From Gnetum montanum (Eukaryota > Plantae > Gnetophyta): 64,000 nt of DNA. Within the stretch, counting starts at the first letter, position 1, and each line of letters starts with the position of its first letter. This document shows, piece by piece, positions 5,448-28,225 of the stretch. The translations under genes were made by a program, and so were the position numbers. The notes beneath the pieces are model-generated. The model worked only from the letters and a program-made list of their open reading frames with translations, searched no databases and was not told where the DNA came from. Location: NCBI GenBank assembly GCA_015680685.1, contig MNCI01003467.1, positions 124,001 to 188,000 on the forward strand. Reading direction: 5' to 3'.

Positions 5448-5460
5448 TTGGCCCCTCTTT
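5448..5460 (-). other. PPT of element C
   Basis: Minus-strand AAAGAGGGGCCAA abutting the 3' LTR TG. Confidence 0.9.
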
Positions 5461-6812
5461 GTCAATGTCTAGAGGACAGACCCAAGAGGCATTAACAAAG
5501 AATACAAAACACCACGAAAAACAAGATGCTAACATCGTTCCTTTGGTGATTACCAAGATGTCACTTAGCTATTCTTGAGAGTTTTGGATTGGTTATGTGG
5601 GAAAAGAGGAAGGATTAAACTAGGGGGAGAAGGAGGTTATGGAAAATGGTAAAGATGAGGCTTAGCAAGGTCCCTTGTCGGAATGCTTATGAGGGATTTG
5701 TTTGCGTGGTCATCTTTGCTTTTGTGGACCTTTGACCTCTCATCGAAATTCTTAGAGAGGGTCACTATGAAATAGCTGATGTGCCATTTTTTTTAGCCAC
5801 ATTCTTTTTTTTTGTGACCTTTTGCTCTTTTACGCTTTCCGTTCACTATTCTACCATTTACATTTGCAAAAAACCTTGTCGCTAGGATGAGTTGTGTTAC
5901 ATCCACGTAGGACCTTGGCCTACCTGCAGATTCTTCCCATGCAACGAGTTGTGTTATGTGCATCATGGACTTTGCGATTGGGCATATGGGAGGGCATTAC
6001 AGGCATTAGGAGAAATCGTAAAATGGAACTATGGCAGGGAGAATTGCTAGTACAAGGAATGATGTAAAGAAGGTTAAAGGGGAGGGTAGGATATGCACTC
6101 TAAAGTAGCTAGGCTAATTAGGATGACCATCTTAGAACTATGTAGTGTCCTTCCACTGGCGAAATGCACCTCTGACTGACACCCCTCTAGCACACGTCTT
6201 GCAAACACAATAAAGAGAAAACCAGAATAAACAACCATGATGCAAAATGAAGGCAAGGGCCTTGCTAGCTTTGGATGTTTTTGGAGCAACTGATGTTATT
6301 GCTAAGCCACGCGACATCCAAACTAGAAAGGCTAGTAGTGGTTGTCACAACATCAATGTGGAGAAGTTGGCACTGAGACAGCTAGGAATTGTGGTGATGC
6401 GAGTGCTCAGGAATCCCCACCCAAGGAAAACATTATGTAGTTCAGCTATGAGATTGGCTGCCCAACAGCTAAACATCTTTTGGGCTTGGGTGATGACTGG
6501 GGCTGGAGGATAAAAATATTGTGGTTGGGCCATAATACTGTTAGGACTCTAGCAGTAGGCGCTGACCAAGGAAGCTACTACCAGGGCAATGAGCCGTGGT
6601 AGCAATGGCTCCAGAGGATCAGCATAATGTCATACGACATCTCCGAAGGATCAGTAAGATGTCAGGGGCAATGGCATTACATTTATTTCCAAGGGTATTT
6701 TCATAGCATCATGAACTGCATTCGGGAACTACAACATCCCACCCGGTGTTGGCAGTATGCATGCTCGCTTGCTTGGTGAGTCATGGATGCACACTAGGGA
6801 CGTGCCATGAAC

Positions 6813-7270
6813 CCAGTTTAAGGTCCTGGTAGACCACCTGATGCGTTGGTTTAAGGTATCGATAGACTGAGTTGCACTAGTTTAATGTCTTAGTAGACCA
6901 TTGCACTATTTTAACATCATAGTGAATGGTGGCTATGCTAGTTTAAGGTCCTAGCAGATCATAGTGCTAGTTTAACATCATAGCAGATGGTGGATCATCT
7001 AGTTTAACGTCATAGTGCATGGTCTGTGCCATTTTATAGTCATAGCGGACTACCTTTGCCAATTTTATGTCATAGCGGATGAGCTTTGTGCCATTTTAAT
7101 GTCATAGCAGATGTTCTATGCCAGTTTCACTTCGTAGCAGACGATCTGTGGTAGTTTTATGTTGTAGCAAACGATCTATGCTAGTTTTACATTGTAGCAG
7201 ATGTTCTTTGACAATTTTATGTCGTAGCAGACTGATTGCTTACCTTTGTTAGTTTTACATTGTAGTAGAT
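6813..7270. repeat. ~28-30 bp degenerate tandem repeat in the 3' UTR of element C
   Basis: About 15 units of gctagttt(a/t)a(c/t)(a/g)tc(a/g)tagcagat; homologous reverse-complement array at 28228-28615 in B. Confidence 0.85.
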
Positions 7271-7292
7271 GTTTTCTTAGCTTTTTCATGCA

Positions 7293-8550
7293 TTAGATGT
7301 AGTATAGCCTGAGGTATGAATGGTTTAAAGGATTTGCAAACTCATTGCCATACATGTCTACAAGCTTGAAGGCCCCGTTCCCAAAGGTTTTTGTGACCAT
7401 AAATGGACCTTTCCAATTTTTTGAGAATTTGTTCATATGCTCACGGACAGCTTTGAGGATGAGGTTTCCCTTTTGTATCAACTGTTGCTATTTGTTTGCA
7501 TGATGCTTCTAATGTTTCTTGTTCTGATATTGCTCTATGTGACCAAGTATTTGTGCACGCTCCTCCTCTATTGAGTTGAGGTCAATGATCCTCAACTCAT
7601 TGTTCAAGGCTTCGCTCACAATGTTTGATAGGATCATTCAAAGTGAAGGCACCTGCAGCTCAAGAGGTAACACTGCTTGAAATCCATAAACAAGACTATA
7701 AGGTGCCTTACTTGTCACAGTTCTGCACATCATCCTATAAGCCCACAACACATAGAGGATTTGCTCATGCCATCTTCTCTTGCTATTGTTAAGAATTTTC
7801 TTAAGCAAGTTGATGATGGACTTGTTCATAGCTTCTTCTTATCCATTCTCTTGCAAGTAGTATGGCAAGGAGAATGATTGCCTAATGTTGAAATTTCTGC
7901 AAAAGGTTTTGGTTTTTGCACTACTGAATTGTGGCCCTTTGTCGATCACAATAGTCATGGGAAGCCCAAACCTTGTAACAATGTTGTCCAAAATGAAGTG
8001 GCAAACCTGCTGGGATGTGGTCTTCCTTAGGAGAATGGCCTCCATCCACTTTGTAAAATACTCGGTGATGGTGATGATGAAGCTATGCTCTACAGAAGAC
8101 TTAGGTGTGATAGGTCCTATGATGTCTAGTCCCCATCACTGGAAAGGCCACATGATCTACATTGGATGCAACTCTGTTGAAAAAATGTGTATAAGATTTG
8201 CATATCTTTGGCACATATCACAAGACTTAACTTTGGCTAGACAATCATGCTCCATGTGAGGCTAGTAATACCCTAAGTGTCTGATCTTTGTAGCCATGGC
8301 CCTAGGTGCTATGTGTCCACCACACAGTCCCTCATGTACTTCATTAATAACCTTTTGTGCTTGCATCTCATTTATGAATGCTAGTAATATCCTGTCAAAG
8401 GAGCATCTACACAAGGCATTATCTCCCATGAGTACGTATTTCCATGCAAGCTTGCAGATCACATCTCTCTGGGTAGATGTCAATCTGCTTGGGGGTTCAT
8501 CATGTTGCAGGTAGGTTTTAATGTTGGTGTATCACTCTTGGGTATCCGCA
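7293..8550 (-). pseudogene. pol: Integrase of element C
   Basis: EVHEGLCGGH...LGYY (H2C2 zinc finger), WGLDIIGPI-like segment, FILDNIVTRFGLPMTIVIDKGPQF, LWAYR...APYSLVYG, KFSKNWKGPF (GPY/F). Confidence 0.9.
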
Positions 8551-8649
8551 ATGCTAACAGAGGCTACATGTACCACCTGAGTGATAGGCTCTGTACACTC
8601 GGCAATCAAAGCTGGCAAACAGGTGTGATGACACATTTAACACTAGGGT

Positions 8650-9010
8650 GGCCATGGCATCTGCTATGGTGTTTTCGTTGCATAGCATGTGTTGCATGTC
8701 CATTGTTGTGAACTGCTTAAGCAGGCTTTTATCTAGGTTGCAATAGGATTACAGGTGTGTAGCCTTATAGCCATAAACCTTGGTGATTTGATTTACAAAA
8801 GGTTGTGAATCTCTGCAAATCGCCAGGTGTTGTATGCTTAATTCTTGGGCTACTAAGGGGCTCCTGAGTAACTCTTCATACTCTACCATGTTGTTCATAC
8901 AAGGGAATGCAAAATGATAAGCAAAAGGTTGCATTTTCCTAGAGGGAAACGTAATGATAGCAGCTGCACTACCTCCTTGCACGGTCGAGGCACCATCAAA
9001 ATGCAAAGTA
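8650..9010 (-). pseudogene. Additional archaeal-type RNase H (aRH), diagnostic of the Tat lineage
   Basis: HFDGASTVQGG...CMNNMVEYEELL...LAICRDSQPFVNQI (D, E, D motifs of RNase HI) between RH and IN. Confidence 0.85.
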
Positions 9011-9049
9011 ACATCAAGATGTGATGGGACAGTGTTGACAGTGCTAACA

Positions 9050-9297
9050 TGCTAATCAGGGAATTTGGAATCTATGATTGCCTGATCGTCGACAGGTGAC
9101 ATCATAAGTTGCATTACTATAGCTTGACCCTTTGTCGACGATTAGCTCACATAATGCAAATCGAATTCCGCTATTATGGCTTTCCACTAGGCTATCCTAC
9201 TACTTTCATACAGGTTATTTGTGATAGCCCAAAGTACATTGCTCTTGCAAATAATGTTAACTTTACTACGAAACAAGTAATGCCTCCACTTCTTTAA
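9050..9297 (-). pseudogene. pol: C-terminal fragment of the Gypsy RNase H/tether domain; RT and the rest of RH deleted
   Basis: KKWRHYLFRSKVNIICKSNVL...AEFDLHYV...KGQAI matches 27415-27590 in B. Homology stops abruptly at ~9297. Confidence 0.85.
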
Positions 9298-9390
9298 CAT
9301 AGAGCTTTCATTCAAAGAATAGAATGATTGTGCTATCTAAGAGCAAGGTGATTCAGCATAGCAAGCAAGAAAGAATTAGCGACCAAAACG

Positions 9391-12300
9391 ATGGCTCCTA
9401 GGAAAGAATGCAAACACCTAGCACTCACCAAGGTGGATGAATTTAAGGAGACCCTAGGGAATGTGACACAGGTGCACGTTCCTATGCAAGAGGAGACCCC
9501 ATCAACCCGGTAAGTCACTACGTTCCTTTGTTTCTCTATGTTACGGTTATTGCTTCTACTTCTTCTATTTTCATTTTCTGCAAATTTTGTCATGCAATCT
9601 GCATCTTTCTGCCATAATTTTACTGCTATTTTATCCATTACACCATCACTGTTGCTAATTTAGTCATGACAGGTGTATGATCACTATGCTAGGATTGCAT
9701 GCAATGTTGTCTAAAGCTCCATCATTACGGCTGGCTTGCGGTAGAAGCTTAGGCGATTTTAGCAACTCCATATGCGAATAGCATAGCATACGATCCTCAA
9801 CAGTGTTTGGCCATGTGTGTGATTAGATAGCGTAACATGTGTCTACTGCGGGGTATTGCAAATCGTGTTGTTAGGCAGAAGATTTGTTGAAACTAGTGCA
9901 ATGCATTGAATTCTTTCTTGTCAAAATATGTGTGTTTTTCTTTTTGTTGCTATGGTAGGTTAATTCTACTACACTATTGCCTTTGTTCTTTCTACTACGC
10001 AACATGCATAGAGAGATTTATGCTATGCTATATGCTAGATGCTAACTTTGCTACATTGTATGTGAATCCCACTCGAACATGATGCTAACATTTGCTATTG
10101 TGTTATGCAGGATGCTGCTAAGGCCAATCTTGATTGTCCTAAAAATTATAGGGGTTCTGTGCTATTTAAGCGAACCAGTGGCCAATGTTCCTCCATCCCA
10201 TGTGTGTGCGGGGTAGCAGGTGGTCTAGTTCTAGGAAGGTGCACGTGAATTCCTACAATTTCTCCTCCAGCACTTTAGTGTAATCGTTTAGTCACACTTG
10301 GCAAAGGAGGTAGTAGTCGTTGTGATAGGAACCCTTTTTCCTGGGGCAAATCAGGGTATTATGAGATTTTTGATGGATGGAGCAATTAGAAGCGAGCAGG
10401 GAGAAGGATCTAGTCAGTGTCCAAAAAATTCGAGGCGTCTAGCTTGGATCTAGAAGATGCTCGAATAAAATTGCTACCATCTGTACAACACTTTTTTTGT
10501 TGCACGCCACATGGGAACCTATTTTCAAAACCCACCAAGAACCATTTACTATGCTAGCGGGTGAGTCCTATGAACATATTCCACTACGCTATGCAATATT
10601 TTCTACACTAGGCAAATGTTAACAGCGTGTTTTTGTTACTAGGTTTTTAATCAACAAGGATGGACTTCATGGTGACTAAAATGTGTTGGCCTTGGCATGG
10701 ATGGCGCTATGGGAGTTTTCTTCCACTGGGAATATGCACAGAGGTATGATAGGCCAATTTGGGGGTGATTAAAAAACCTACCCAACCCGGTACTCCCAAC
10801 TTTATAATAGGTGTAAGGAGTCTGGTTCGTTGGATGAGGGTTGGGTACCCTTCAAACTGATCACCGTTGAAGATGTATTGGTGGATCTTCTGCCATTCCC
10901 ATCACTGTTTAAACCGAGTAAGCTAAAATGTGGGTTGCTTGCATGTTCGAGTGTCAATCCTATTTTTATGCTATTTTTTGCTTATCTAAGTTTTTCTACT
11001 TTTTCCTATGTCAACTGCTACAGTGGAAAAGAAGAGGGAGGAGGTGACGGTGCTCACCTCTGGGAACCATGAAGCCAACATCTACTTCAAGTATAGGGAG
11101 GTAGATGAGACTCAATGTTGGCTTTGCAGCGAGGCCTCAGACTCACTGACCAAGCAATTTAAGAATGTTGGACTTATGGACTTGTTCCTAGCCACAAACC
11201 CAAGCATCCATGTTGCTGAGATGCTATTACTAGCAAACCGCTTCTGCACACGTGTGCACGGTGTGCAAGTGGTCTTTGAATTCAATGAAAAACTATTCAT
11301 GGATCTTTATGGTGTCCCTATTGATGGTCTCCCTATAGGAGCAAAGGCCAAAAGAGAGGCAAACCATTAGGAAGAAGATGAAGAAGAAGAAGATGATGAT
11401 GAAGAGATGTTGGCCCCCAAAATGGGGATGGCTAATAAAGATGTGGTGGCCTTGGTCATAGAGTAAAGGGCCCTGGTCAAGAGGGAAGAAATGCCCACCA
11501 CAAAGGAAGGGGCTCTCATTGTCAAAGAAAAAGCTCTTGTAGATGAGGAGGACATTTTGGCCAACAAGGAGGATTCCCCAACTGATAAAAAGGATGCTAG
11601 TGCCTTGAAAAGAAAGGCCCTAGCAAATAAAGAGAAAGTCCTTGTCAACTGGGAAGGGATTTCTGCTGATGATCCTCTTGCTGAATTCAATTCAGCACTA
11701 GATGAACACAAAGGGTGCCACCATATTTTTGAGCCAGCAAGGAGGGGATCTACAACTAGAAGCTGACGAGTTTGATCATATTTTTGACAGTATGTCAATG
11801 GGTGACCCCCCCCCCCCCCTATCACTCCTAAGGGTTTGCTGGGTAGGAGCCTTTGCACTGTCATTTGTGTTTTTCATCGGCTTCATTGTAGTGCATCTCA
11901 ATCATGACTGACGCGTTTAGTCATATGGAAGACACCACCGCTAACACTGTAGGACCTCCCCTGATTTAACTAAAACCATGGACTGAGACCCTTGACAAGC
12001 TCATGTTCATGCAAGGGGTCATCAACGACATGATCGACCATATCAGACAGGTCAATCCGGAGGTGGGTAAGAAAAGTGGCTATGCTAGGCTTTTAGCTTG
12101 CTATGCTAGACTTCCTGAATTGCCAAGCTTTGCTATGCTAATGCGACTAATGCACTTTCATGCTATAACAGCCTCTCACCTCAAGTGGGACCTGAAATGA
12201 GTAGTAAAGGTGGACTCAGTGCTTACATTCCCACCTGAAGTGACCGAGGTGCCTCGTCGCATATACAACGAGGCTATCAAGTGTGCATTACACTCGGCAT

Positions 12301-13175
12301 GCTCCCTATTGGAGTGTAGGCACATAAATGAAGACCTGTGGAAATAGGTCTAGAGGCAAGAGAGGGAGATATCCAATCTGACCACCAAGGTGGAAGACCT
12401 CCATTCTAGGAACGAGTTCCTCCTAGCCTGTGATAACAATGATAATAATTAACACATAGCCATCATAGATTATGCCAGATATTGGACAGTTGTGTGAAGT
12501 AATAACAAGGCCACCTAGGAGATAATAGAGTAGCGAATGCAAATGGAGTTGTTTGCCTAAAAGAACCAAGATTGGAAGATTATAGCACTAGAGTTTACGA
12601 GTGGGGGCAGTCCTAGAAAAACCATAAGCACATGTATAAACTAGAATGTATCACATATTGTAAACAATATTGGGATGCTTTAGTAAATTTGTTTACTCAT
12701 GAAGCATTCTTGAATGCTATTGGTGCTTCTGAGGCCTACAAAAAATTTATGTAACAAGTGATGGTCATTAAGTCACCTGAGCGAGAATTAAACCTTCCAA
12801 CATGTGAGACAACCACTGCTTCCTTTTCTCCATGACCACCAAGATGGATGGCCATTGAAAAGGAGAAAGCTGCCACAAATGTTGAACTAAGTGATAGGCA
12901 CTGGGTAGATATCATGGAGGAGGAGGTCTAGCACTACCTCGAGCTTGGACTGAACCACATACTCTTCAAGATAGACGCGAGGCTATCTCAAGTCAGTCAC
13001 TTTCCACAATGCAACAGTTTATGTTTTCTAGCTTTTACGTGTAACTCTAGTTCACTACTTCATTTCTATGATGCAGGTTCTAGATGAAGAAGCAGGGTCC
13101 CTAGAGGGCAGAAATGATGACACAGTAGAAGAAGATGGTGCAAAGGGAAACGAGGAAGGGGAAGATGATGCATAA
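9391..13175 (+). pseudogene. Spliced accessory gene antisense to element C (FCP1/NIF-like + PMD-like + coiled coil + acidic tail). Exons ~9391-9509, 10111-10560, 10643-10917, 11024-11842 (internal deletion), ~11927-12066, 12172-12991, 13077-13175.
   Basis: GT..AG introns with branch-point-like CTAAC/CTAAT and T-rich interiors. Splice phases rejoin the frame. Translated exons are collinear with 21298-26023 (-). Confidence 0.8.
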
Positions 13176-13359
13176 TTACAAGGCTCTTGATTTTTTTATG
13201 TTTTTTGCATTTTTGCAAGAATGTTACAAAACTACTGCAAATAAACATTATCTAAGTGGAGTTTTGAATGAAAAATGGATTTTTGGCAAAAATTGATGCT
13301 ACTCTAGTTTACGCATTTCATATGTTATCTATGCGATCGCTTTCTTATGTTTTTCATTT

Positions 13360-13837
13360 TATTTTTAGGCCATTTTAGGCCATTGCTAGTTTTAGGCCAT
13401 TCCAGTCCATGCATAGTTTTAGGCCATTCTAGGCCATGTGAATGGAAATTTTTACCAGTTTTAGGCCTTAGTGGGCCGTACTATAGTTTTAGCCCATTTT
13501 GGGCCATCACTAGTTTTAGGCCATTTCAGGCCCTAGGATAGTAGTGTAGTTTTAGGCCATTTTAGGCCATGGGATAATAGCATAGTTTTAGGCCATTTTG
13601 GGCCATGGTGGAATATAGTTTTAGGTTGTTCCTGGCCATGGGGGAATATAGTTTTAGGCCATTTTGGGCCATCGCTAGTTTTAGGCCATTTCAGGCCCTA
13701 GGATAGTAGTGTAGTTTTAGGCCATTTTAGGCCATGGGATAATAGTGTAGTTTTAGACCATTTTGGGCCATGGTGGAATATAGTTTTAGGTTGTTCTTGG
13801 CCATGGGGGAATATAGTTTTAGGCCATTTTGGGCCAT
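13360..13837. repeat. GTTTTAGGCCATT tandem array with a 165-bp higher-order period
   Basis: TATAGTTTTAG(G/C)CCATTTTGGGCCAT recurs at 13482, 13647 and 13812. Homologous array at 20845-21085 in B. Confidence 0.9.
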
Positions 13838-13999
13838 GCGATTAGAGAGAGGATATGCTAACGATTTAGAGAAAAGTTTATCAATGTACCTAGCGTAGAT
13901 GGATAGATGCAAAACAAAAAGGCAGTAAATGCACAACGGATGCCAATTGGGTAGGAAGCAGTGGGGTTGCTACACTATGCATAGCTACTTCTTGACCCA

Positions 14000-16900
14000 T
14001 CATGGGTTAGATGAGGCATAAGGCCAAGACACCTTGCCAAGGTATTTGTTTGTATCGTTGTCCTCCACTTGGAAGGGAAACTCGGCCCACGCATTTTCAT
14101 TTTCTAATCCAACATGTTGGGCTAACTCCTTTGCTAAGCAGTTAGTGTTGATAGAGATAGGTGCCTCATTCTCAGAGGTGATAACCTCTAAACCATGCTC
14201 CATGTCCATGTTATTTATAGCTTGAGTTGCTACCTCATCATTGTGGGTTATCACCTCCCTACCTACATAGGGTAGGTGAATCTCCTAATGTATGGACAAA
14301 GAGACAGCTCTAAGTTGTGCTAACCATGACCTCTGTAAGATCATGTTAAACTCGGGCATCTCTTCCATTATGATAAATGTTGCATTCATGGGGAACTGGT
14401 CCCCTACCATAAATTCAATGTAGACCGTGCCCTTCACCATGACCCATGCCTTGTTAAATGACTTTAAGCACGATGTCATCATGGGTTTGATCTGGTCGAC
14501 CAAACCCAACTTGTCCACTATAGGGAATGGGATGACGTTTGTAGCAACCCCATCATCAATGTGTACCCTTCGAATCTTGTGTTGGCTAACCCAAATTGTG
14601 ATGAAAAGAGGAACTGTAGTCACCTAACCCTTCTTAGGGTCTTCCCTAATGGAATCATTGCAAAACATCAATTGGGATTCTTTGATTCTGCAAGCACAGA
14701 AGGAAGCATCACTGAATGGATCATCTCTTCTTCTACTGGCATGTTCTCATCAACTACAATTGATGTTAACATGTGAACCAAAGCTTCAAGGTGTGTAGTA
14801 GAAGCCATAATTAGGTCATACAGGCTCAAAGTTGTGTTCTTCTGCTTCAGAGCTTACTTGACCTAGGTGAGAGAATTTAACAAGTCAAGACCATCTTCCT
14901 ATTTACTACCTTTCTCCTCTTCTATTCATTTGAGGAGACAAATTTCCTGAGGAGGGAAAATTTTGGGTTTGGGATCAGACCCTTTTGGACGAGCTGGTAA
15001 TGACGGTGATTGGGTACCAATGTTATCTTTCAGCAATGAGGATGTAGATGTAGAGGATGAGGGCGTAGGTTTAGAAGTACCTAGAGTGGCACATTCTATT
15101 GACACCTCACCTGTCAAGTGCTCTTCTCATTTCTTTGGATGAGAAGACTGCTGTGTTGTGTTATGCGGGGTGGGAACAGTTGAATGACTTGGCCCCCTGA
15201 TAACAAATAGTGTTAACGATGTTAATGGGTGCGATGGTGGTGTGGTCTTACTAATAAGCAATGCAGAGGTGAATGTTTGGGGAGGAACTCTCAAGAAAAA
15301 TGATTGTGGTGGAATTTGTCTAGCCACTGGTGGTGCTGGTGCACTACACTGAGGCACATGGACCACAAACAGCTGCTAGGGTAGTTTAGGATTACTATCA
15401 ACATTGATGGTGTTAATGATGTAGCTGACATTTTTGGCATTAAGAGGATCTATGTAAACATGTAGATATTGATTTTTAGTGGGCACTGGGTTACTCTCAT
15501 CGAGGACTAGTTTTCCTTGATCAATCATCCTTTGGATGTCATCTTTTAATGCCATACAGTAATCCGTGTCATGAACACACTGTTGATGGTAGTCACAAAA
15601 CCACTCTAATCTAAAATTCTTAGGGACTAGCGGCTCCTTGGACAAGGCCAAGGAGGGTTCTTATGAAATTCACAATATCGTTGATTTTTTTTAATTCCCT
15701 CATCTAACATCCACTTGTGTTGGATGTACCCCTTTGCCAATAATTTCTTCAGGAGTTTTGAAGGCTTAACAGGCAATTCGGTATACTTGGAGCAATCTTT
15801 ACGCTCAAAGTTTGGCTTAGGGGGTGTGGATGCTTTGGATGTAGATAGGGAGGATTGAGGTGCATTGCCCTATTTGGGTATGGGGTTAGGTGCCAGTGCA
15901 GCCACCTTCTTGTTGTTCTTGTTATTGTTGTTGGGCTTGGCTTCATTCGCGACAGCGGCCACTGTGGTTGTTGCAGCCTTGTCCTTGTCCTTCTTTGCAA
16001 ATGTGTTTTTGTATGCAACATAAGCTGGGTCTTTTCTTGTCTCAGCTATGTCTTGTATGCTCTTTGTCTAAGAGAAAGCCTGACCAAGAGTCCAGGAAGT
16101 GAGGTAATACAACTTGGACTTGATGAAGTCGTTCACTACACCCTTAAAGACTGTTAGTAAATGGGCTTCCGCGATGGGCTCGCAAATCTCATTAAGGGTA
16201 GCAATCCATTGCTAGATGAACTTTTGGACTGGCTCCAGCATGTCTTGTTTCACACTCATTAGCTGATCCAGTGTAACTTCTATCCTCAAGTTGTACTTGA
16301 AATGCGTTACAAACTAGGTAAAGAGCATCTCTAAGGTTGAGATGGAGGATGGTGGAAGCACGCGGTACCAGTCCAGGGTTTTCCTCATCAGATACATAGC
16401 AAAGACACCGATGATTGTATGTGGCCATTGTTGCAAAAGAAGAGACTTAAATATGAAAGTGACAAGATGGGAGTTGGGATCACCCTCCCCATTGTATTTC
16501 ATGAAATGGGGAAGTGGCATCCCAGGAGGTAAAGTCAGTGCAGGAATTTCCAAGCTTATGGGATCATCCTGGTAAAAATCCATGACCTATACCATGTCAG
16601 AACTAGTAGCCTTGGGGTGTTTAATTTCCTCAATAAGGGTTTGGATGAGCTAGAACGCTTGATCTAGACCTGAAGATGATGTCGATAGTTAGGGAGCTTT
16701 AGAGGTAGCTCCCATCTATGGCGTGGCATGGGCAGCAACATGACCCACAGGTGGCGCTGTGGGGGTGCCCCCTATGAAAGGTGCTACTTGTGCTATCCAC
16801 CATCTAGTAGGTGGTGATGTTGGAGCAACAACTGCCAATTGTGCTACAGGGTAAATCATTTGTGCAACCGATGGGACAAACCATTGTCTCGTGCTTGGTT

Positions 16901-17770
16901 GTACCATTTGTGGAACTTGGTACATTTGCTGGTGAATATAGTGGAACATCTATGATGGCTATAAAATACGAGGAGAGGCATTTGGGATCCACCATGTTGA
17001 TGGGCTTGGGCCCACCGCCAATGGTGGGATAGGTGTAGACACACGAACGGAGGCAGAAACTGCATGCAATTGCCAGGTAGGCACAGTGTGAACATGGGGC
17101 AGAGTAGCCATGATGAAAGCATGATACACTAAGGGAATAGGTTGGGGAACAGTTTGCGATGGGGTAGTGATTGAGAGTGAGACAGGGGAGTAGGCATGTT
17201 GATACATTGAAGACATGGCATGGCTACCAATTTTTAATGTAATCATGGGTTGCATCAGTGCAAATGTGATCATGAAGGGAGTGGCGGTAGAAAGCGAGTT
17301 TGTCCAAAAAAATCGGATGGTAGGAATGGTGGTAGGGTTAGTTTGACCCCCATCCTTAGATTGGGAATCTAGTTCCTCCTGTCCATCTTGGAATGTCTCA
17401 TCATGGTGTGACGCTGTGTCTTACGGCTTCCGAAGCCTAATGACCTAGATCAACTGATCTATGAGCCATTGGTTTGTTTGTGTTAAAGGAATGGAAACGC
17501 TAGGAGTGGGAAAAAATTCCCTCCCATGGAAATAAGTAAACTCGAAGCTATGTTTGTCTTCAAGTTCTTTTGTATCTAAGGGAAAGTTTGCCTGCACCTT
17601 AGGACAAAGAAAGTTATATTGCTCATATTGCTGGGTCAAGCCCTTAGGTGCCTAATTTTGGATCCTGAGGGATCAACGTGGCCCCAGCACTAGGCTAGGC
17701 AGTAGCTTGGCACCTCTGATTCCTTGAACTGAGAGGGGAACCTCAACATTAGAGGTAGTAGCTACTATGC
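14000..17770 (-). pseudogene. gag: gag-protease of element C
   Basis: KYNGEGDPNSHLVTF; CHHC knuckle WFCDYHQQCVHDTDYC; protease RRVHIDDGVATNVIP...FNMILQRSWL (14285-14623). Confidence 0.9.
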
Positions 17771-18005
17771 TAGAGGAAATCATTGTCATAAGGCTAAAAG
17801 GGACTTGCAAATGAGAAAAACAAGGAGATCAGAAGGCAATCGAAGGCTTTCTGTCTTGCAAGATTCTAGAGGAACCGTCGAAGTGACCAATCTGCACCAC
17901 ACAATGTGTAAACAAATGCAAGAGGGTGTCACATTTATGCTAGTGTGTGATGGGGTACAGAACCCATGCAAGACTACCTTGAAACATGGAAAAGACACCC
18001 AAAGG

Positions 18006-18022
18006 CCCTCCTTCTAGTGCCA
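18006..18022 (-). other. Primer binding site complementary to the 3' end of plant tRNA-Asn(GUU)
   Basis: Minus-strand TGGCACTAGAAGGAGGG (= TGGCGCTAGAAGGAGGG with one CpG decay), 6 nt inside the 5' LTR. The tRNA identity is from recall. Confidence 0.8.
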
Positions 18023-18028
18023 GAAAAT

Positions 18029-19864
18029 TGTAGCAACCAAAAATGTCAATGGCTGGAAACACCAAGAGGTTGTCTGGTGCATAGTTTTAACCTCAGATCC
18101 TTGTGAGGGCCATGCTGGATGAAAATGGAAATAGGGTGCCCTAAATAGTTTGGTCAATCAGACAGGGACTTAGTCGGTGTCACTTAACCTTTCATAAACA
18201 TGTAATGTAGAAGCAATGTTTATAACGTAATATAAAAATTAATAAATGAAATGAAGCAAAAAATGATGTAAAATGCAATAATAATGAGTGGGAATTTAAA
18301 GTGAATAAGAGTTAGAAAATGCACCACCTCAAGACCGTGGCTATACAATTCATTGCGCAACACTAGGAAGCACAGAGATCCCAAAGGTAACCAGAGCATT
18401 CAAAGTAGGCCAACTATGTTCTTGAACGTGGACTCGAAAGCCAACAATGCAAAGTGCTACAAAGGTAGCAGGAAGGAGCTAATAGAATGCCAAGAGAAAA
18501 TGCCAACCACTTAATTTTTTCCAATTTTCCAACAATAAGTGCTAAGAATGCTTGTAGTTTCCAATAGTGCTTAAAATTGCCAACCACTAAAAGTTACCAA
18601 CCAACCCCAAGTTTTCCAACCCTTTGATCATTGCTTGTCAAGGTATTTATAGGGCTAGGAGCACACGAGGGATGTGGTTTGGACACCATGTGTCCTGGAC
18701 CTGCAAGGTGCTGACGTGTCCATGCTACATGGACATGCAAAGCTGATTGACAAGCCTGCCATGCTACAATCACATTGTCAAAACTAGAGATGCTGGGGTC
18801 AAGTATGCCAATAATGCAAACAAGGAATGAGGCACACAAGAGTAGCGTAGCTACCTGCTATGCTATGCTATACAATGTAGTGTAGCATGTTGGCATAGCA
18901 TAGCAACTTACTACATTGTGCTACGCTATGTAGCATAGCACAATGTAACCACCAGTTTGAAGAAGAAGTTGGCGTTGAAGTTAACTGCATCTGTTGAAAG
19001 CTTTGTCGCACATTAAGTCAACTTTTGCAGCACTTGGTTGGATATGAATATTTTTCTATGCTACGCTACACTTCATAGTGTAGCATAGCGTAGTAGTTGG
19101 CTTCATTCATGATCCGTGTTGAAGTTGCTAATGTTTGCTTGGAGCTCTAATCATGCTAACAATTGCAACTGTTGCCTTCTACGATGAGAGATCTGTGAAC
19201 TTACTGACTTTGCATATGAGAGGCTCATTACTACTTTTAAATCATCGCTACACCATGCTACACTATATAGTATAGCATAGCATAACAACCAACATATCCT
19301 ACATTTTATTCAATATGCCACTTTATGATGAGAAGCGTTTCTAAAGATTTGATGTTAAGGAGTCGAAGCCAAACAAGGCAATTGGTTTTGAAGGCCAGAG
19401 TGCCTCCTGAGTGCAATTGGAATTACTAGGTAATTTGGGCCTTTCTGTCTTGCCTTTTTCTACGCTATGTAGTGTAGCATAGCATAGCAACCTATTCTAA
19501 AACAGTTTGTACTTGATCGCCTTAGCAACTATCTTCTAAAGCCTGCTATGCTACATAGCGTAGCGTAGCATAGCAAACTTCTTCATTACAAAACATGCCA
19601 AACTATTTTGCATAGCCTGAGCACCACTAACAACCCCATGAATCACTTCTGAGTAGATTGTCAGCTAGGTGAATGGTCTAGGTGGGTAGGCTAGAGAGTC
19701 CATCGAGCTTGTCAACACTAGAAGTAGAAAATTTACTGAACTAGAGAGAACTTAGAGCATTCATTTCCTACTAAACTGTTGTGACATTGCACTTGTGGAA
19801 ATCCCTTGCCTAAATTTTAAGACCCTGGTGAAGCAGGAGGATCTTGAAATTTTAGGGTGTTTCA
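18029..19864 (-). repeat. 5' LTR of element C (1836 bp)
   Basis: Direct repeat of 3593-5447 (9 differences in one 180-bp stretch checked, more in GC-rich parts); adjacent to the PBS. Confidence 0.95.
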
Positions 19865-20700
19865 TCTCCCATGCATTGTAAGGCTTTGGTTCATGTGTTG
19901 GCATTCATTCCTATTAAGGAAGACATGCCAATAGAGGAAAAGACTATCAATGTTGTAATGCTTCCACCTATGACCGAAGAATGAAGGCCAACACTTTTGA
20001 ATTTTCACAATGAATCCATCAAAGCTGACCTTGAGAAGGGTCAAGTAGCTACTACATTCATGTTCATAACAATTCATGTGGGTTTGTACAAGATTCACAA
20101 AGTGCACATTGATGATGGAGCAGCAACCAATGTTACCCCATTCCCTATTGTTGAAACGCTTGGCTTGGTGGATCAAATCAGGCCAACAACAATGGCCTAT
20201 TTAAAGTCATTCAATGGAGCATGTGTGGTTGTCAATGGAATAGTCATGATTGATTTCATGGTAGGGGAGCAATTCCCCACTAATGCATAGTTCATCATTG
20301 TTGAGGAGATACCTAGATTCAACTTAATCCTAGGGAGATCTTGGTTAGCCCAACTATAGGTTGTTTCTTCACCAATCCACCAAGAGATCCACTTACCTTA
20401 TGAGGATGGAGAAGTGGTGATCTTTGGTAACAACATAGCCCCTCATGCCATCAACAATGTAGACACTGAGCAAGGGTCAAAGGTAGAAATCTCCAAAGAT
20501 ATATACCACCTATGTACAATGAAAATCAATGTTATTCGACAGATGAACCAAGTAAAATGAGTGATCCCCATGAGGAAGCTCTATGGGTAGAATTACCTTT
20601 TTCAATGGTATATGATGGCCTAGAAGAGTATCACCTTGTGTCTTCCAAGGCTTATGCATCACCTAACCCACATCAGGTTAGGAAACATCTACATAATTAG
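19865..20700 (+). pseudogene. pol: Protease region of element B
   Basis: KIHKVHIDDGAATNVTP...FNLILGRSWL; collinear with 14000-14800 (-). Confidence 0.9.
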
Positions 20701-20844
20701 GGCATGTCCCTAACTTTCTTGTTCCTCTAACTTGTCTTTAGCTATTTTTTTTCTGTATAGCTACAATTTGTGTTATGTTTGCTTCTTGCATTAGTTATGC
20801 TTTTGTTTTGCCCAAAAAAAAAACAATAAGAAAAAAGAGTACAA

Positions 20845-21085
20845 CATGGCCGAAAATGGCCTTAAACTATGACATGGCCCGAAATGGCCTTAAATTATCC
20901 CATGGCCCACCAAGGCCTAAAACTAGCAACCAACTTTCTTTCACAAAAAGCAATGGCTCAAAATGGCCTTAAACTAGCGATGGCCCAAAATGGCCTTAAA
21001 CTAGTAATGGCCTAAAATGGTCTTAATCTAGTGAGGGCTTGAAATGGCCTTAAAATAGCACATGGGACCCACAAGGGGCCTAATT
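20845..21085. repeat. AAATGGCCTTAAACTA tandem array between PR and the 3' end of the antisense gene
   Basis: About 9 units; reverse-complement homolog of 13360-13837. Confidence 0.85.
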
Positions 21086-22884
21086 ACATCAACAAAAAAA
21101 ATCTCTAAAATAAGATTAACTAAAATATAAGTTAAAATGACACCACGAAAGATCAATACATAAACAAAATAAGTATCATGCTTTTCATTAAATCATAAAC
21201 AAATTACATAGTCTAGGGATACATCCACATCAAAAGATACAAAATTTCCCAACAATATGGCTACATCTCAAATATTTTAATGAGTATTAATGGGAAGCTA
21301 AGGCTCTTCCCCTCCATCTTTATCTGTTGCTCTACTAGGTCCTACGCCTTCACCTAAATTCTATGTAAAATAGAGACAAAATGATAAACTAGTCAATAAA
21401 AAGGATAACATGTGAAAATAGATAGAAATAAAGTAAATTTAACCAACCTAAGATGGGCCCATGTTCATGTCTAGGGACAAACTATTAAGGCCAGCCTCTA
21501 AGCATCAAAGAATTTCCTCATTTGTCATATTTGCCCAATCCTCCTCTCCTAGGTCAATGCCTTTGAGGGTCTTTCCTTTTTCCATGGCCATCAATACAGG
21601 TAGCCTTGGAGAAAATGTAGCAAATATAACCTCTCCAAAAGGAACAATGATTTCCCTCTTCGAGGACTCACTGACCACCAAGTATTTTGGAAGCCTATTG
21701 TAAGCCTATGTCACATTGATGGCATCAAGGAATAGGTCATGATCTTAGCATTCCATAGACTTATCTCTATATTTCTTATGATAGGATGCATGTTCCATTT
21801 TTTACTAATACTTTTGGTTCTTCTGATTCTATCCCCACTCATATACCTTGATGTTGTAGTCCTTCTAGTCTTTGTTCTTTTGAGCTAAGAGGTCCATTTT
21901 CAAGCATTTCTCAATAACCTTGCATGTCACCTCATTTTTGCCCCTAACGACTGATCAATATCTAACATAGTCAATCATAGCCATATACTAGCTACCATCT
22001 AATTTATTGTAGGCCATCAAAAACTTGTACCATTATTGCAATTCTTCTAGTTGAGTTGCCTAGCTTGCCTTCTATTCTTTGAGTCTTTGCACTCATTTCC
22101 AGAGGTCTTCGTTCACATGCCTACACTCCCATAGTGATTGGGCTGAGTGCAGTGTGTACTTTCTTGCCTTGTCATATATATAAAAAGGAACCTATTTTAC
22201 CTTAGGAGGCAACTCAGGAAAAACATCAACTTGGACAACCCCTCGTGGATCACATTTGAGTCATAAGGCTATTATACCAAAGAGGGGAAACATTAGTTGT
22301 AAGACAAAGATAAAAATAAAAAAAACATAACAACAAAGAAAAAAATAAAAATCTAAATATATGTATCTTAGGATCTATCTATTTCAAATGGTTAATCATT
22401 TCATCCACTATGCCATTCATGAAGGAAAACTTATTTGGGGTTTCTACCAACGGTTGTGAGTAGAAGGTGGATGAAGATTTAGGATGCTTAGTGGAAGCAT
22501 CACTTGCTATAAGATAAAAAGTGTTAGCATTGTCAAAACAAAACATAAAAAAATGGTAAAGTAAAAAGAAGAGGAAGACAAAGAAGAAGGAGAGGAAGAT
22601 CATAATGAAAAATGGTGGTGCAAAGCTCCTACTCAACAAACCCTTAGAAGTGAGAGCGGGGGGATCACCCATATTTCCATCTTCAAACAAAAACTCAAAC
22701 ATACCATCGTCAAATTTTAGCCCCTCCACTTTGAGCTACCTCAAGATTTTGGTGGTGTCTTCATTTGTTATGTGTCCCTCAATCTGATGGACATCTTATG
22801 CTATGGGCTTCCCTTCTCTTGAGGGCTCCTCTTCTTTGACAATAGCCTCTTCCTAATCTATGTTGCATAAACTAGAGTTAGAAC

Positions 22885-22887
<3 letters not shown>

Positions 22888-22924
<37 letters not shown>
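22888..22924. repeat. (TC)n microsatellite inside an intron of the antisense gene
   Basis: About 18 TC units within predicted intron 22858-22988. Confidence 0.95.
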
Positions 22925-22926
<2 letters not shown>

Positions 22927-24974
22927 TTATATATACTTACTAGTAAACTTTGACTATGTATCATTGACTCTGAGATGTAACTTCTTACCCCTTATTTCAA
23001 TTTTGTGCATGGGCACCTCTACATGGTGAGGCTTCTTGATTTGCAGCTTTGATCTTACCATCCTAGTGATGAGTTATTCCCCTCTCATTGCATTTCCTAT
23101 GTTCATGGAAGGAGCCTCCCTAGCACTATCATGCATACAGTAGGATGGTCCTACCTGGCACTTGGTGATTATAGAAAAGGACTTGCCAATAGCCTCTGGG
23201 GGGCCTTCTGACCGTGTTGTATGGAACAAATGGTAGATGCATGGCTTGGATATCTAGGTCTGATCTTGCACCATCCATATCCCATTTTCATGGACCACTA
23301 GAAATTTCACAAACCTCATCAAGAATGCTATGAAAAATGAAAAATGTACATGAGAGCATGCCTTGAGGTTGCTGTGGAATTTAATTATTTTGACTCATAC
23401 ACCATTAGTAAGGTATTTGGCCCAATTGTGTCATGTCCCCACCTCCACTAAGTCCCTCATAATCCAAGCCTGCTCTACCTTAAGAACCTTTCCTTAGAAA
23501 AGTAGCTTAGGAAATGCATGAGTTTGAAAGATGAGGTAGAGGTGTTGGACCACCAAAAATTTTACCAACTTGATGGGAATGCCTTTGCAGCCTTTCTCAG
23601 TGCCTAGCCACTCTTCAATGTCCTCTTTATGGTTTAAATCCTTGTTCATATTTTCAGCTACAAGTAAACCTTTAGAGGGAACACCAAATAGATCTAAAAA
23701 GAGGTCATATATGATCTCCAAGACCACCCACACATTGTGAACTTGCATGTGGAAGTGATTAGCACTCTTCATGAAAGAGTCAACAAGGGAAATCATCTCT
23801 ACTATTAGGATGCTTGGGTTCACAGCCAAAAAGAGGTCCATGAGCTCAACCTATTGAACATTTTGGGTAATCTTTATTGGGGCCTTGTGGCAAAACTAGT
23901 GCTATGAACCATCAACCTCAACATACTTGAAAAGAAGATTGGCCTCAGTGCATTTTGAGACAATCACTATGACCTTCCTAGACTTGGCCATAGCTGCAGT
24001 AAATAGAATAGAATCAGCAATGTGATGGAAATGTAAAAATAAAAAATGTATGAAAATAAACTAAATGGGTGACAACTTACTTGGCACAAACGATGTGGGA
24101 AATTGCGGTATTTGGATTGAAACTTCTTCCATAGTGGGTATCCAGGATGTCCACTCAACATCCAACCACGTGAGATCTTGGCACCTCACATAGGATTTGG
24201 AGTACTTAGTAGGGTAATTCATCATATCTACCTCAATTTTTCCTATGACACTAGCACACATGTTCTTAGCGGATGAGAACTCTTACGGGGCTATTTGTAC
24301 TAGGGCTAATGTCCCTTCTCTATCATGAAGGATATCTTCATCAATAAAAAATCTGATGATAGGAAAAAAGGTAATAAGCATTCCAAGTCATGAGATAAAA
24401 AAAATTCATCATCACAATAGGGCTCACCCTCCAACATAGTAAACTATTCCAAATGGGTTCTAGAAGGTCATGCCTACATGGTGGGTAATTAATACAATAT
24501 TGTATTTATGATAACACTTGAACTTGAGCATCTCTTAGATCTAAGACAAGGGTCTAAGACCTCTTAGGGATTGACTTGAGCTCCTTTCCTCTTCACCTTT
24601 AACAAGTTCATCTGACATGAATTTTAAAATGCCTCAGTTTACCTCAAGTAACAACATTTCAACTAGCACACCTGCTACTTTAGCGGACAAGTGTGACCAC
24701 ATCACACATGAAAGTGGTGAAGTAGGAGTTCCAAGAATTCCTATGTACCTTCCCAAAACAACACTGCCTGGTGTCCTATGCCTACATGTGGTGTAAGGAC
24801 ATTAGGCATGGGATTTCTCATACAACATAAGATCCCTATTAGTTCAACCATGACCAAGGTAGGTTTCAGTAGGACCCTACATTGCCACAATAATGAAAAC
24901 ATCAGTGTCAAAAAAGGAGCAATAAAACAACAAAAGTAATAGAAAAATAATGCATGAAATAATAAACAAAAATT

Positions 24975-25420
24975 TTGAAAAATTTTCTAACTGTTGGTTA
25001 CACTCCTGCAAAGTGTAACACTTTTTGAACAAAATTTTTCTAACTATTTGTCATGCTCCCAAGGATTGTAATAGCTATGGAACAACTAGAAAAGAGTAAA
25101 AAAAATTTCGAAGTATCAATCACACTCCCAGTGAGCATGAAAACTGGATAGTCTAATAGAAAATGTTGCACAAATTTTTCAAGTGTTTTCCATGCTCCTA
25201 GGGATCATGACAACTATAAATGATGAGCAAAAATTTAAAAACAATTTCTAAGTCTTGGTGACACTCCCAAGGAGCGTGAAAATAGTAGAATGTGCAAAAA
25301 TTTTCCAAGTGTTGGTCACACTCCCAGGGAGCATGACAATAGGAAAATGTGCAAAATTTTCCAAGTGTAGAATGTAGCAGTCCCAAAATTTTTTTCTAAC
25401 CTTTTAGTCACACTCTCAAG
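24975..25420. repeat. ~50-60 bp degenerate tandem repeat in intron 1 of the antisense gene
   Basis: Repeated aaaattttc(c/t)aagtgttggtcacactccca(a/g)ggagc(a/g)tga, about 8 units. Confidence 0.8.
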
Positions 25421-26154
25421 AATTCCCTAGAGCTTAACAACTGGCACAGGACACCTATGAAACCCTTGTCCCATCCCACCACATGGAACACACAAAGACC
25501 CTTGTTACACGACATGGGATGTGGAGCACCCAAGATCATCTCAATGTGCTATGCTTAGTGGTACATGTATAACCCTTGTCCTGTCCTACCCCATGTAGCA
25601 CAACAAAATCCTTGCCCCATCCCATGGCACTTAACACCTAGAAATCCATGACAAACCCTTTCCTAGCACCGTAGCATAAGCTGCCATCAAACCCAAAAAA
25701 ATGCACATAAACACAAAGATCCATGATGTGCACTCCCTCCCTTCCCAACCGTGACAGCAGCGATGACAGCTATGGCACAGTGGCTATAGAAATAGACCCT
25801 AACCATGGTAGGTTACCCCATAAACCACACAACCCCAAAGCACAAACATGTGGGAAGCAGAAAATAGAATGCAAAAATCATGAGAGTAAGGTATGATGGC
25901 ATACTTGGTAGATGGTGCCTCTTGGCTCTCTTTGATGCACACCCTAGGGAGACATCGCAAGGTGCACTTGCCTTCATCAATGTTTGCTAGGCCAAGGTGT
26001 CTATGTTTGCTCATACATGTCATCTTCTCACTGTCAAGCTCTAGCTCTTCTGTTGTCACACTCTGTGGGTGATACGCTCTACTTTGGCCATGCTACACTT
26101 GGATGAATATTGGCTCTAATGATGAAAATGATAGGTTTACCATGGGTAAACACC

Positions 26155-26162
26155 TATTTATA
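26155..26162 (-). promoter_or_regulatory. Candidate TATA box of the antisense gene
   Basis: Minus-strand TATAAATA about 130 nt upstream of the conserved ATG at 26023, just upstream of where the RT coding region begins on the plus strand. Confidence 0.55.
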
Positions 26163-26353
26163 CCCTTCAAGGTCAAATGACATGTCACTCTTCTGGGATG
26201 TCCTATGTCTCACACATAACGTGCAATGCCCTATGTCTTGTGCATAATGTGGAATGTCCCATGTTCCACGTAGTGTAACATCTAGAGTTAGAAATCTTTT
26301 TTAACTTTTTTAGTATTTTACACTCAGAAATATTTTTACATTTTTTCTACTTC

Positions 26354-28225
26354 CCAGTTAAACAAAAGGCTCATAAAATCAATCCTAAGATTGCATTGGC
26401 CATCCACAATAAAATCACTAAACTTTACCAAATCAGTTTCATTCGGACAGTTGACTATGCAAACTAGGTTTCAAACATTGTAGTTGTCCCCAAGAAAAAT
26501 GGAGGTATATGCATTTGCATAGACTTCCAAGACCTAAATAAGTCAACCATTAAAGATGATTTCTGATTACCTAGTATTGACCAACTTGTTGATACTATGA
26601 CTGGTCATGCCTTGTTGTCCTTCGTGGACATATTCTCTAGGTACAACCAAATTTGCATCAACCCAAAGCACCAACTTACCACTACTTTCGTGACCCCTTG
26701 GGGGAAATTTTGTTATACAATAATTCCCTTTGGATTAAAGAACGCAAGAGCAACATATCAACATGCAATGACATACATCTTTAGTGACTATTTGCTATAA
26801 TTGCTTAATGACTATGTTGACAACATAGTAGTTAAGTCCAAAATGGCTCATGACCACATGAATGACTTGGACTGTGTCCTTAAATGTTTCCGTAGACATG
26901 ACCTTAGGCTTAATCCCAAAAAGTGTGTCTTTGTATTTAAAATTGATCGCATGTTAGGCTTTGTGGTATCAGAAACAAGAATACACGTAGACCCCAACAA
27001 GGTTAATGCTATCACCAACTTGGAACCACCAGCAAACCTTAAGGAGCTATGAGGATTACAAGGTAGGATACAATTCATACATTGATTTATCACAAGGTTG
27101 ACTAATAAGTTACAACCAATGCAACATATACTTAAAAAAGGGATCAACTTTGAGTCAACAACTCAATGCCAAGAGGCATTCAAAAACTTAAAAAAGAAGC
27201 TAGTTCAACTTCCAATAGTTTATCCTTCAAAAAGAGATAAACCTTTCTACATCTACCTTACAACCTTAGATACATCCATTGCTTCCCTGCTTTATCAAAA
27301 GCAAGACGATGGTTCTAAGGTTCCTCTTTACTACCTAAGCCATGCATTAGTAGCACATGAGGGAAAGTATAATGTTATGGAGAAAAACTATCTTTCCTTA
27401 GTCTTTGCACTTAAAAAATGGAGACACTACCTTTTCCATAGTCAAGTTAATGTCATTTGCAAAAGTAACGTACTTAGGGATGTTACAACAAACATATATG
27501 AAAGTAGTATAATAGCAAGATGGAAGGCAATAACCATGGAATTTGATCAAGATTACATAGTATAGGTGTCCATGAAAGATCAAGCAATAGCTACCTAACT
27601 CATGGCTTCACCCATAGACAATCAAGCAATGATAGATCCAAAATTCTTGGATGAGCATGTTAGTAGTATAAGCCAAGTACCTAAAAATATCAAGGCCATT
27701 TTACGCTTTGATGGTGCTTCAACCACACAAGTTGGTAGTGTCACTGCTATTATCACATTTTCTTCTAGAGAGATCTGACCCTTCACATACCACTTTGCAT
27801 TTCTTTGTACAAAAAACATGGCAGAGTACAAAGGTCTCCTTAGATGCATCTTAGTAGCTCAAGAGTTAGGCATTGAAAACATAGTAATCTGAGGTGACTC
27901 AGAGCTCGTTATTAACCAAATCATAGATGTGTATGCTTGTAAAGCACAACAAGTACAACCTTACTGTGATTTGGCAAAACACTTGCTTAAAAAATTTGCA
28001 AGCATAGATGTCCAACATATCCCCTGCAACAAAAATGTCATAGCTGATGCACTAGCTACATTAGCCTTAAGCATATCATCGAACATGTTCTCTACTTTTC
28101 CTACATAAATAGTGGATTGCACTGAACCTATAATTCACACAACAAGCATTGCATCCATAGGCACAACTCATGTCCAAGAATGGTACAATGACATCAAGGC
28201 ATACATCCAACAAGGAGAGCCCCCA
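26354..28225 (+). pseudogene. pol: RT - RNase H - aRH of element B, truncated at the start of integrase
   Basis: PVKQ, VVVPKKNGGICICIDFQDLNK, PFGLKNARATYQ, YVDN (YVDD site), LNPKKCVF, YYLSHAL...EKNYLSLVFALKKWRHYL; aRH FDGAST...AEY...GDSELVINQ...NVIADALA. Confidence 0.92.

Follow-up and report, generated by a model that had tools for sequence, protein, structure and literature searches.

Extra open reading frames (ORFs) in antisense orientation are known in the Tat elements, where they lie 5′ of gag or 3′ of pol. In plants these include TRP28 (PF04195) of Retand, gene23 of maize Grande, the ORF of rice RIRE2 and the PMD or PMD-coiled coil ORFs of TatIII/lineage V (PMC11963269, PMC7264820, PMC4408406); the latter (PMD-CC) are treated in section 6 of PMC4408406, and the antisense gene of Grande has been shown to have its own promoter (PMC7264820). 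In Ogre a non-coding interval between gag-pro and RT, averaging 274 bp, is spliced out (PMC6317226, section 13), and a sense-oriented extra ORF precedes gag (PMC4408406, lineage IV). According to a 2025 review, plant LTR retrotransposons generally lack them, the exceptions being Ogre and EVADE (PMC12786077). Multi-exonic antisense transcripts conserved across related LTR families are described for Arabidopsis Copia, where they are non-coding and start in the 3′ LTR (bioRxiv 10.1101/2024.04.02.587720). A search for antisense and spliced transcripts has been called for in review (PMC7264820).

The gene described here lies in a 64,000-nt window of the Gnetum montanum genome (the whole stretch analysed), in a retrotransposon designated element B. 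Like the plant Tat antisense ORFs, it has a Tat-type host with two RNase H domains, an accessory protein conserved like pol, tandem repeats nearby, a candidate promoter of its own and a C-terminal coiled-coil-like region. The known plant ORFs, however, sit between pol and the 3′ LTR and have been described as ORFs, whereas the element B gene sits between protease and RT, has eight introns and a predicted product of ~1,000 aa, and gave no match to TRP28 or PMD at E<=10. With Ogre the host shares the order RT-RH-aRH-INT and a non-coding interval between gag-pro and RT, but here the interval is ~5.7 kb and holds the antisense gene, the extra gene being neither sense nor 5′ of gag. Unlike the Copia transcripts, the gene is internal and, by the codon test, protein-coding. 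Another antisense extra gene in Gypsy elements, brtn of the fungal Boty-like group, was reportedly described by Zhao and colleagues in 2011 (cited in PMC8365987 and PMC7264820) and shows no sign of homology here. Our literature search found no paper on a spliced antisense gene between protease and RT; the supplementary structure tables of PMC6317226 and PMC4408406, which lay outside that search, may list a similar layout.

Results

The host of the gene is a Tat-type Ty3/gypsy LTR retrotransposon, with the antisense gene placed between protease and RT-RH-aRH (Table 1). The archaeal-type RNase H, RVT_3, follows RT_RNaseH in both element B and the nested element C, as in Tat elements, and the best database matches of the host pol are plant RT-RH-aRH polyproteins. 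In C the Pfam order is RH, aRH, Integrase_H2C2, rve, with aRH between RH and integrase as in Ogre/Retand. The gag regions of B and C are putative, that of C giving no Pfam match; the presumed protease of B is named from its motifs and position and has no Pfam match. Element C has LTRs of 1.85 kb with TG..CA ends (84% identical) and a 5-bp target duplication, TCTCC; the LTRs of B are fragmentary (63% alike). Both copies are incomplete: the RT core is deleted in C, and the integrase of C has no counterpart in B, from which integrase is missing.

Table 1 Features of elements B and C in the window (positions count from the first letter of the window).
Feature	Position	Strand	Remarks
Element B, presumed gag region	1821..3592	+	61% nt identity to C 16586-14797; parted from protease by nested C
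Nested element C	3593..19864	-	LTRs 3593-5447 and 18029-19864; gag-pro, antisense gene, RH-aRH-INT
Element C antisense gene	9391..13175	+	six introns; relative to B, exon 5 is missing and exon 4 has lost its 3′ half
Intron 7 of the C gene	12067-12171		105 nt; absent from 3 RNA reads of a related copy
Element B, presumed protease region	19875..20700	+	end of gag-pro frame; collinear with C 14784-13900
Tandem repeat array	20846..21065	.	between protease and gene 3′ end; common to C (13363-13838)
B gene exon 9	21298..21360	-	stop codon and short acidic tail; last exon of C (13077-13175) likewise acidic
B gene exon 8	21448..22268	-	helical/coiled-coil-like; 16 stops; both ends project exactly in C
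B gene exon 7	22363..22506	-	following donor falls exactly on a GT in C; RNA reads lack the homologous intron
B gene exon 6	22633..22857	-	acidic linker; donor projects exactly in C
B gene exon 5	22989..23327	-	B only; no counterpart in C
B gene exon 4	23403..23993	-	donor at 23402 keeps frame; 23400 in the sequence-only reading
B gene exon 3	24081..24352	-	both ends project exactly in C
B gene exon 2	24428..24876	-	both ends project onto AG/GT in C; 5 stops, frameshift
B gene exon 1 with ATG	25905..26023	-	119 nt, equal length in C; ATG and donor project exactly
B gene introns 1-4	24877-25904, 24353-24427, 23994-24080, 23328-23400	-
B gene introns 5-8	22858-22988, 22507-22632, 22269-22362, 21361-21447	-
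TATAAATA, candidate internal promoter	26155..26162	-	132 nt upstream of ATG
T-rich tract ending in CAG	26290..26357	+	directly before RT; candidate sense splice acceptor
Element B RT, RNase H and second (archaeal-type) RNase H	26354..28225	+	Pfam RVT_1, RT_RNaseH, RT_RNaseH_2, RVT_3

Collinearity of B and C extends over protease, tandem repeats and gene and resumes at RH-aRH, where differences at codon positions 1/2/3 number 57/42/111 in 206 codons. This strong constraint indicates that selection still acted on the part of pol downstream of the gene once B and C had split. The RT of B is at best 50% identical to other RTs; in a quick tree of 110 rows, built without labelled references, its branch is long (0.89) and poorly placed, sharing an open fork with proteins from Taxus and Victoria. 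No homolog of the antisense gene was found after the protease of element D, a third Tat-like element. The position of the gene between protease and RT, its most unusual feature and one that the sequence-only finding did not mention, is very probably a trait of the lineage.

The element B gene runs from an ATG at 26023 to a stop at 21298-21300, with 3,025 nt of exon, and the ATG projects exactly onto C, in agreement with the ~3.0 kb of exon and the start codon of an earlier reading made from sequence only. Of the eight introns proposed there, seven have GT..AG ends at the coordinates given; intron 7 has a non-canonical donor (22362) in B but a canonical one at the homologous site in C, and the proposed donor of intron 4 breaks the frame, which is kept only with an alternative GT at 23402. 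Introns 4 and 5 are putative, having no counterpart in C. All eight introns are AT-rich (61-80%, vs 52-62% in exons). The copy is complete, as had been claimed, in that all exons are present, but it is not intact: premature stops number 28 over exon 1 and exons 3-9 and five in exon 2 (~33 in total), with a frameshift in exon 2 near 24,710. Eight of the nine exons are shorter than 200 codons.

Exact projection onto canonical sites of C is seen for nine of the 16 splice boundaries and for the ATG (uncorrected chance 1e-11); a lack of splice-site conservation, named beforehand as one of two outcomes that would refute the gene model, was not observed. The lengths of homologous introns differ by non-multiples of three in five of six cases. 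Amino acid identity between B and C is 41% over 32 aa in exon 1, 47% and 36% in two frames of exon 2, 43-46% over the first ~125 codons of exon 4, the 3′ half of which is missing from C, and 42% and 35% in exon 8. The coding frame contains one stop in exon 3 (nine and eight in the other frames) and two in exon 5 (12 and six). Across 702 codons, differences at positions 1/2/3 are 296/205/404, and the excess of third- over first-position changes (p=5e-5) fixes the antisense reading direction. Third-position divergence is 0.575 in the gene and 0.562 in the pol controls. By this codon comparison, the antisense gene evolved under protein-level selection with a third-position divergence equal to that of pol. 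Two copies enter the comparison; each is decayed and carries deletions near the promoter/RT junction, and neither preserves an intact layout.

The TATA-like sequence TATAAATA is not above chance, since shuffling the 377 bp upstream yields a TATAWAW 34% of the time (P=0.34), and element C has lost the region that matches this stretch of B. Tandem arrays within the gene, at 22888-22924 (intron 5) and 25245-25368 (intron 1), are both intronic, as the sequence-only reading had argued in favour of the model, but this lends it little weight because introns make up 36% of the gene span.

In RNA reads a joint 12035->12171 skips 135 nt with 30 read letters between, so that 105 nt are removed, exactly intron 7 of the C gene. 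The support consists of three reads with three starts, for one intron, in a single unstranded oligo-dT run (X13), and the reads come from copies mostly < 95% alike. No joint was listed at any of the eight introns of B (coverage ~1x, threshold three reads). Eleven X13 reads match from 26354 onward and continue upstream in sequence absent from the window. Gag, LTR and RT are also covered by reads of the same runs. Five DNA runs (two studies, two organism labels) contain over half of the window's words, and one of the studies may be its source; no RNA run was listed as containing it, which speaks neither for nor against expression. In DNA run X5, RT draws ~10x the contig depth of the antisense gene, a depth that is not a copy number. 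A deep peak at 22312-22351 (runs X10 and X11) was an artefact of poly-A/T reads on an intron tract. Splice-site projection, codon constraint and the RNA joint of a relative bear out the proposal of a spliced, protein-coding antisense gene in a retroelement. The element B gene is a real gene, dead in the present copy.

The product would be ~1,000 aa, with a globular N-terminal half (exons 2-5), an acidic linker (17 D/E in the 74 aa of exon 6), a helical/coiled-coil region and an acidic tail. The acidic C-terminus noted earlier was recovered in both copies (D/E 5/21 residues in B, 14/32 in C), as was the shared motif ECRH.NEDLWK, found in C in the copy at 9.39-13.17 kb. The coiled coil proposed for exon 8 holds in part: residues 52-110, a window chosen by eye, show modest heptad periodicity (p=0.014 in B, 0.012 in C), but residues 110-175 show none (p=0.99). 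Pfam searches with B and C exons (12/12, then 8/8 queries, all decayed and X-containing) returned no family at E<=10, PMD and TRP28 included. Exons 2b-5, read through in-frame introns, had no phmmer match among 1.84 billion representative proteins, and word-index searches with exon 8 and the exon 4 alignment, which covered longer proteins and are weak evidence, revealed no homolog. Exons 4-5 had no match in the PDB, where two other pieces gave chance matches (E>=0.27); metagenome scans yielded 65 and 183 pattern matches, none confirmed. AlphaFold models of gene pieces had a pLDDT of 35, with unusable folds. As neither Pfam, the 1.84 billion representatives nor the word-index searches gave a match, no family or function is supported by any match. 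Its likely product was a large helper protein without a match to any known family. By eye, we take the motifs of exon 4 to recall PMD, and a PMD-like origin is a possibility that we rate somewhat below even.

The RT, RH and aRH domains are placed by Pfam 330 nt from the ATG of the antisense gene, and the RT profile match begins sharply at the end of the T-rich tract. The usual RT leader upstream of PVKQK was not detectable anywhere in the window; a deletion specific to this copy fits its absence as well as an intron does. A reading of the gag-pro tail as a diverged leader is unsupported, since 23 of 100 shuffles score as high. No frame-compatible sense donor was found for the candidate intron, and no sense joint between gag-pro and RT was listed in the reads.

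Discussion

A real, co-inherited spliced gene accounts for these observations with little doubt. Element B probably carries a nine-exon antisense gene, killed here by mutation, that was inherited with pol under protein-level selection and would have encoded a nuclear accessory factor. Introns of such a gene outlast reverse transcription because the genomic RNA reads it backwards, and for the same reason the spliceosome does not recognise its GT-AG signals in that RNA. An internal promoter just upstream of RT would drive the antisense mRNA, and the protein would protect or activate the element at the chromatin level. This chromatin or anti-silencing role, a rather doubtful proposition, is our best guess because the extra ORFs with PMD plus coiled coil in Tat lineages IV and V have their parts in the same order.

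An exon model arising artefactually from AT-rich patches of decayed retrotransposon sequence deserves next to no credence: there is no open frame, and the stops of exon 8 (16, 25, 16) single out none, but nine boundaries and the ATG projecting exactly, the codon asymmetry and the spliced reads contradict it. Capture of a host gene, with the expressed relative being that gene or a domesticated copy, is very improbable. Eight spliceosomal introns would imply capture at the DNA level or in antisense, and the spliced reads are not tied to a retrotransposon locus; however, no protein search gave a cellular homolog, 35-47% aa identity between copies and the exon loss in C are fast for a host gene, and the same runs also carry gag, LTR and RT reads.

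Many introns, the first of them long, and tandem repeats next to the gene are reminiscent of CACTA and MULE genes, a likeness that counts for a nested DNA transposon (CACTA TnpA-like, MULE or hAT) carried as a passenger in an ancestral pol, selection having acted on the free transposon. The abrupt start of RT homology would agree with this quite unlikely reading. Against it, the 25 longest inverted pairs (of 310 in B and of 155 in C) include no TIRs on either side of the gene, there are no correctly paired CACTA/TAGTG ends, and no transposase, hAT included, was matched in Pfam or PDB, a weak test since decay could hide TIRs and domain. The flanks are moreover collinear and third-position divergence equals that of pol, which would need one old insertion and then selection inside the element; a DNA-transposon origin may have preceded co-option by the retroelement. 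A non-autonomous status of the B and C lineage, with the accessory gene selected, pol not expressed across it, no sense intron, and RT/INT supplied in trans by relatives with a contiguous pol, is also unlikely. The lack of integrase and RT leader in B and of the RT core in C, the greater depth of RT in X5 and the foreign sequence upstream of 26354 in the eleven X13 reads all speak for this; the codon constraint on RH-aRH, the loss of different pol parts in B and C, which looks like independent decay, and the T-rich tract whose final CAG falls directly at the start of RT speak against it.

For a co-inherited antisense gene, the separation of gag-pro from RT-RH-aRH-INT means that pol would come from a sense RNA with the ~5.7-kb interval spliced out, as Ogre does with a short intron at the same place. 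Whether an Ogre-like sense intron contains the whole antisense gene is evenly poised. If it does, the same DNA would undergo splicing in both directions, eight times in the antisense transcript and once in the sense transcript. We tentatively suggest, at a little less than an even chance, that the elements represent an undescribed Tat lineage, with a nine-exon gene for an orphan accessory protein of ~1,000 aa inside a giant sense intron separating gag-pro and RT, and with relatives still expressed. A Retand-type TRP28 ORF between pol and the 3′ LTR was not found on the pol strand, the one strand scanned in the 3′ regions of the elements; the gene lies upstream of RT and has no PF04195 match.

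Screens for extra ORFs would catch at most the largest exon of such a gene and would skip the protease-RT interval, and a class of spliced accessory genes may therefore have gone unnoticed. Through the expressed spliced relative, the function of antisense accessory proteins becomes testable on a natural transcript.

Structure and conservation of the antisense gene

The antisense gene of element B, a decayed Tat-type Ty3/gypsy LTR retrotransposon with pol on the plus strand, is real but dead: a spliced accessory gene that occupies an unusual site and codes for an orphan protein. CG and CHG are strongly depleted across the window and the longest stop-to-stop frame anywhere in it is at most 168 codons, a pattern to be expected of methylated repeats in plants; the RT matches likewise point to a plant. 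In its coding frame the gene has some 33 premature stops (29 stop codons, the terminal one included, across exons 1 and 3-9, plus 5 in exon 2), and exon 2 also has a frameshift. The introns of the sequence-only reading were recovered at their coordinates, with all eight AT-rich and seven bounded by GT..AG; intron 7 has the composition but a non-canonical donor, and intron 4 keeps the frame only if its donor is placed 2 nt further upstream. The proposed TATA motif is present, but a comparable motif occurs in 34% of shuffles.

The splice sites of the model were compared with the homologous gene of element C, a second, diverged element nested in B. When the exons of B alone were aligned to C, the ATG, six of the eight donors and three of the eight acceptors landed exactly on canonical sites, and two further acceptors projected within a few bases of sites in C. 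Five boundaries gave no projection, four because that part is absent from C and one because exon 9 aligned spuriously. The homologous introns are unequal in length, five of the six by non-multiples of three.

Over 702 aligned codons, B and C differ at 296, 205 and 404 first, second and third positions, respectively; the excess of third over first (p = 5e-5) fixes the antisense coding direction. Third-position divergence is 0.575 in the gene versus 0.562 in the protease and RNase H (RH)-archaeal-type RNase H (aRH) controls (336 codons), while second-position divergence is 0.29 versus 0.21. The gene and pol thus diverged over the same span, with somewhat weaker selection on the gene.

Position within the elements

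Pfam matches on the plus strand to reverse transcriptase (RT), RNase H and a second RNase H start about 330 nt from the ATG of the B gene; at the gene's other end, a tandem array is followed by a region resembling protease. The protease and gag regions had no Pfam match, and these labels rest on motifs and position. Element C (16.3 kb; LTRs 84% identical; TCTCC target duplication) lies between B's gag and protease and reads, on the minus strand, gag, protease, a tandem array common to B, the homologous gene on the opposite strand, RH, aRH and integrase. The integrase is missing from B, and the RT core and the promoter region of the antisense gene from C. In two elements, therefore, the antisense gene interrupts the polyprotein region, after protease and before RT. 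The host belongs to the Tat clade and has Ogre/Retand domain order, its placement within the clade being uncertain.

Further features of the window
Feature	Position	Strand	Observation
LTR-like stretch before B's gag	~403-1368 (region 370-1400)		Polypurine tract ahead, no primer-binding site after; suggesting a tandem or recombined structure
Read groups, oligo-dT runs X13-X15	21509-21546; 10305-10395		Near-identical loose ends; 19, 7 and 11 reads at 21509
Low-complexity stretch in C	11368-11760		Acidic, lysine-rich; stands in place of exon 5 and the 3' half of exon 4; mostly open, joining exons 4-6 into one
Primer-binding-site-like sequence	18006-18022	-	Just inside C's 5' LTR; resembles a tRNA-Asn-type site
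Inverted 5' part of LTR	29711-30725		Internal tandem repeats; adjoins end of B's 3' LTR remnant (28999-29712)
Element D (third, Tat-like)	31400-41000	+	gag 31.5-32.6 kb, protease 33.3-33.95 kb, then ~7 kb without RT
Region within D	35.8-38.0 kb		GC-richer, strong negative GC skew, like B's antisense gene; a few intron-like tracts on the minus strand; no homology to B/C, no Pfam match; possibly unrelated antisense cargo
Direct repeat	43039-43960; 54211-55144		935 bp, 83% identity; probably the LTRs of one more element
RH and integrase region	47274-48788	+	Further decayed region of this kind, only 26-30% identical to B and C
gag region	62534-63720		Fourth Tat-like, continuing past window end

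Protein product

The product matched no Pfam family, none of 1.84 billion protein representatives, and nothing in two word-index protein searches, the PDB or metagenome contigs; predicted folds were unusable. By eye, motifs in exon 4 may resemble PMD (plant mobile domain)/DUF1985. Exons 6 and 9 are acidic and exon 8 has modest heptad periodicity. The parts follow one another much as in the extra ORFs with a PMD and a coiled coil described in PMC4408406.

RNA evidence

Four RNA runs aligned to 9,000-26,500 gave four listed joints. One of them is carried by three reads of oligo-dT run X13 with three different starts: 135 nt are skipped and 30 read letters lie in between, so that a net 105 nt are removed, up to the exon 8 acceptor. 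This corresponds exactly to C's intron at 12067-12171, the counterpart of the intron that has the broken donor in B. Only 7 of 638 aligned X13 reads are at least 95% alike and none 99%; they derive from relatives, and the library appears unstranded. No listed joint fell at B's own introns (depth about 1x). RNA support for splicing is thin but exact. The near-identical loose ends of the grouped reads point to one diverged expressed locus of the antisense gene family.

Proposed mechanism and comparison with other Tat elements

By established reasoning, genomic RNA reads the antisense gene backwards, so that its introns would stay unspliced and be copied into every new insertion. The gene itself would rely on an internal promoter close to the RT start, similar to Grande gene23, which has its own promoter according to PMC7264820. 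Expression of pol would have to get across a 5.7 kb interval; in Ogre, the interval at the corresponding position is removed by splicing (PMC6317226), and a T-rich tract ending in CAG lies at the start of RT homology in B. But no frame-compatible sense-strand donor was found and the window lacks the usual RT leader, so a deletion or a non-autonomous lineage may be the explanation instead. The strong codon constraint on RH-aRH between the two copies argues that the elements used the downstream part of pol.

In PMC6317226, PMC4408406, PMC11963269 and PMC7264820, extra ORFs of Tat elements lie either 5' to gag or 3' to pol, whereas the gene in B and C lies between protease and RT. In the literature covered, mostly open-access main texts, nothing was found that describes an antisense gene with introns between protease and RT.
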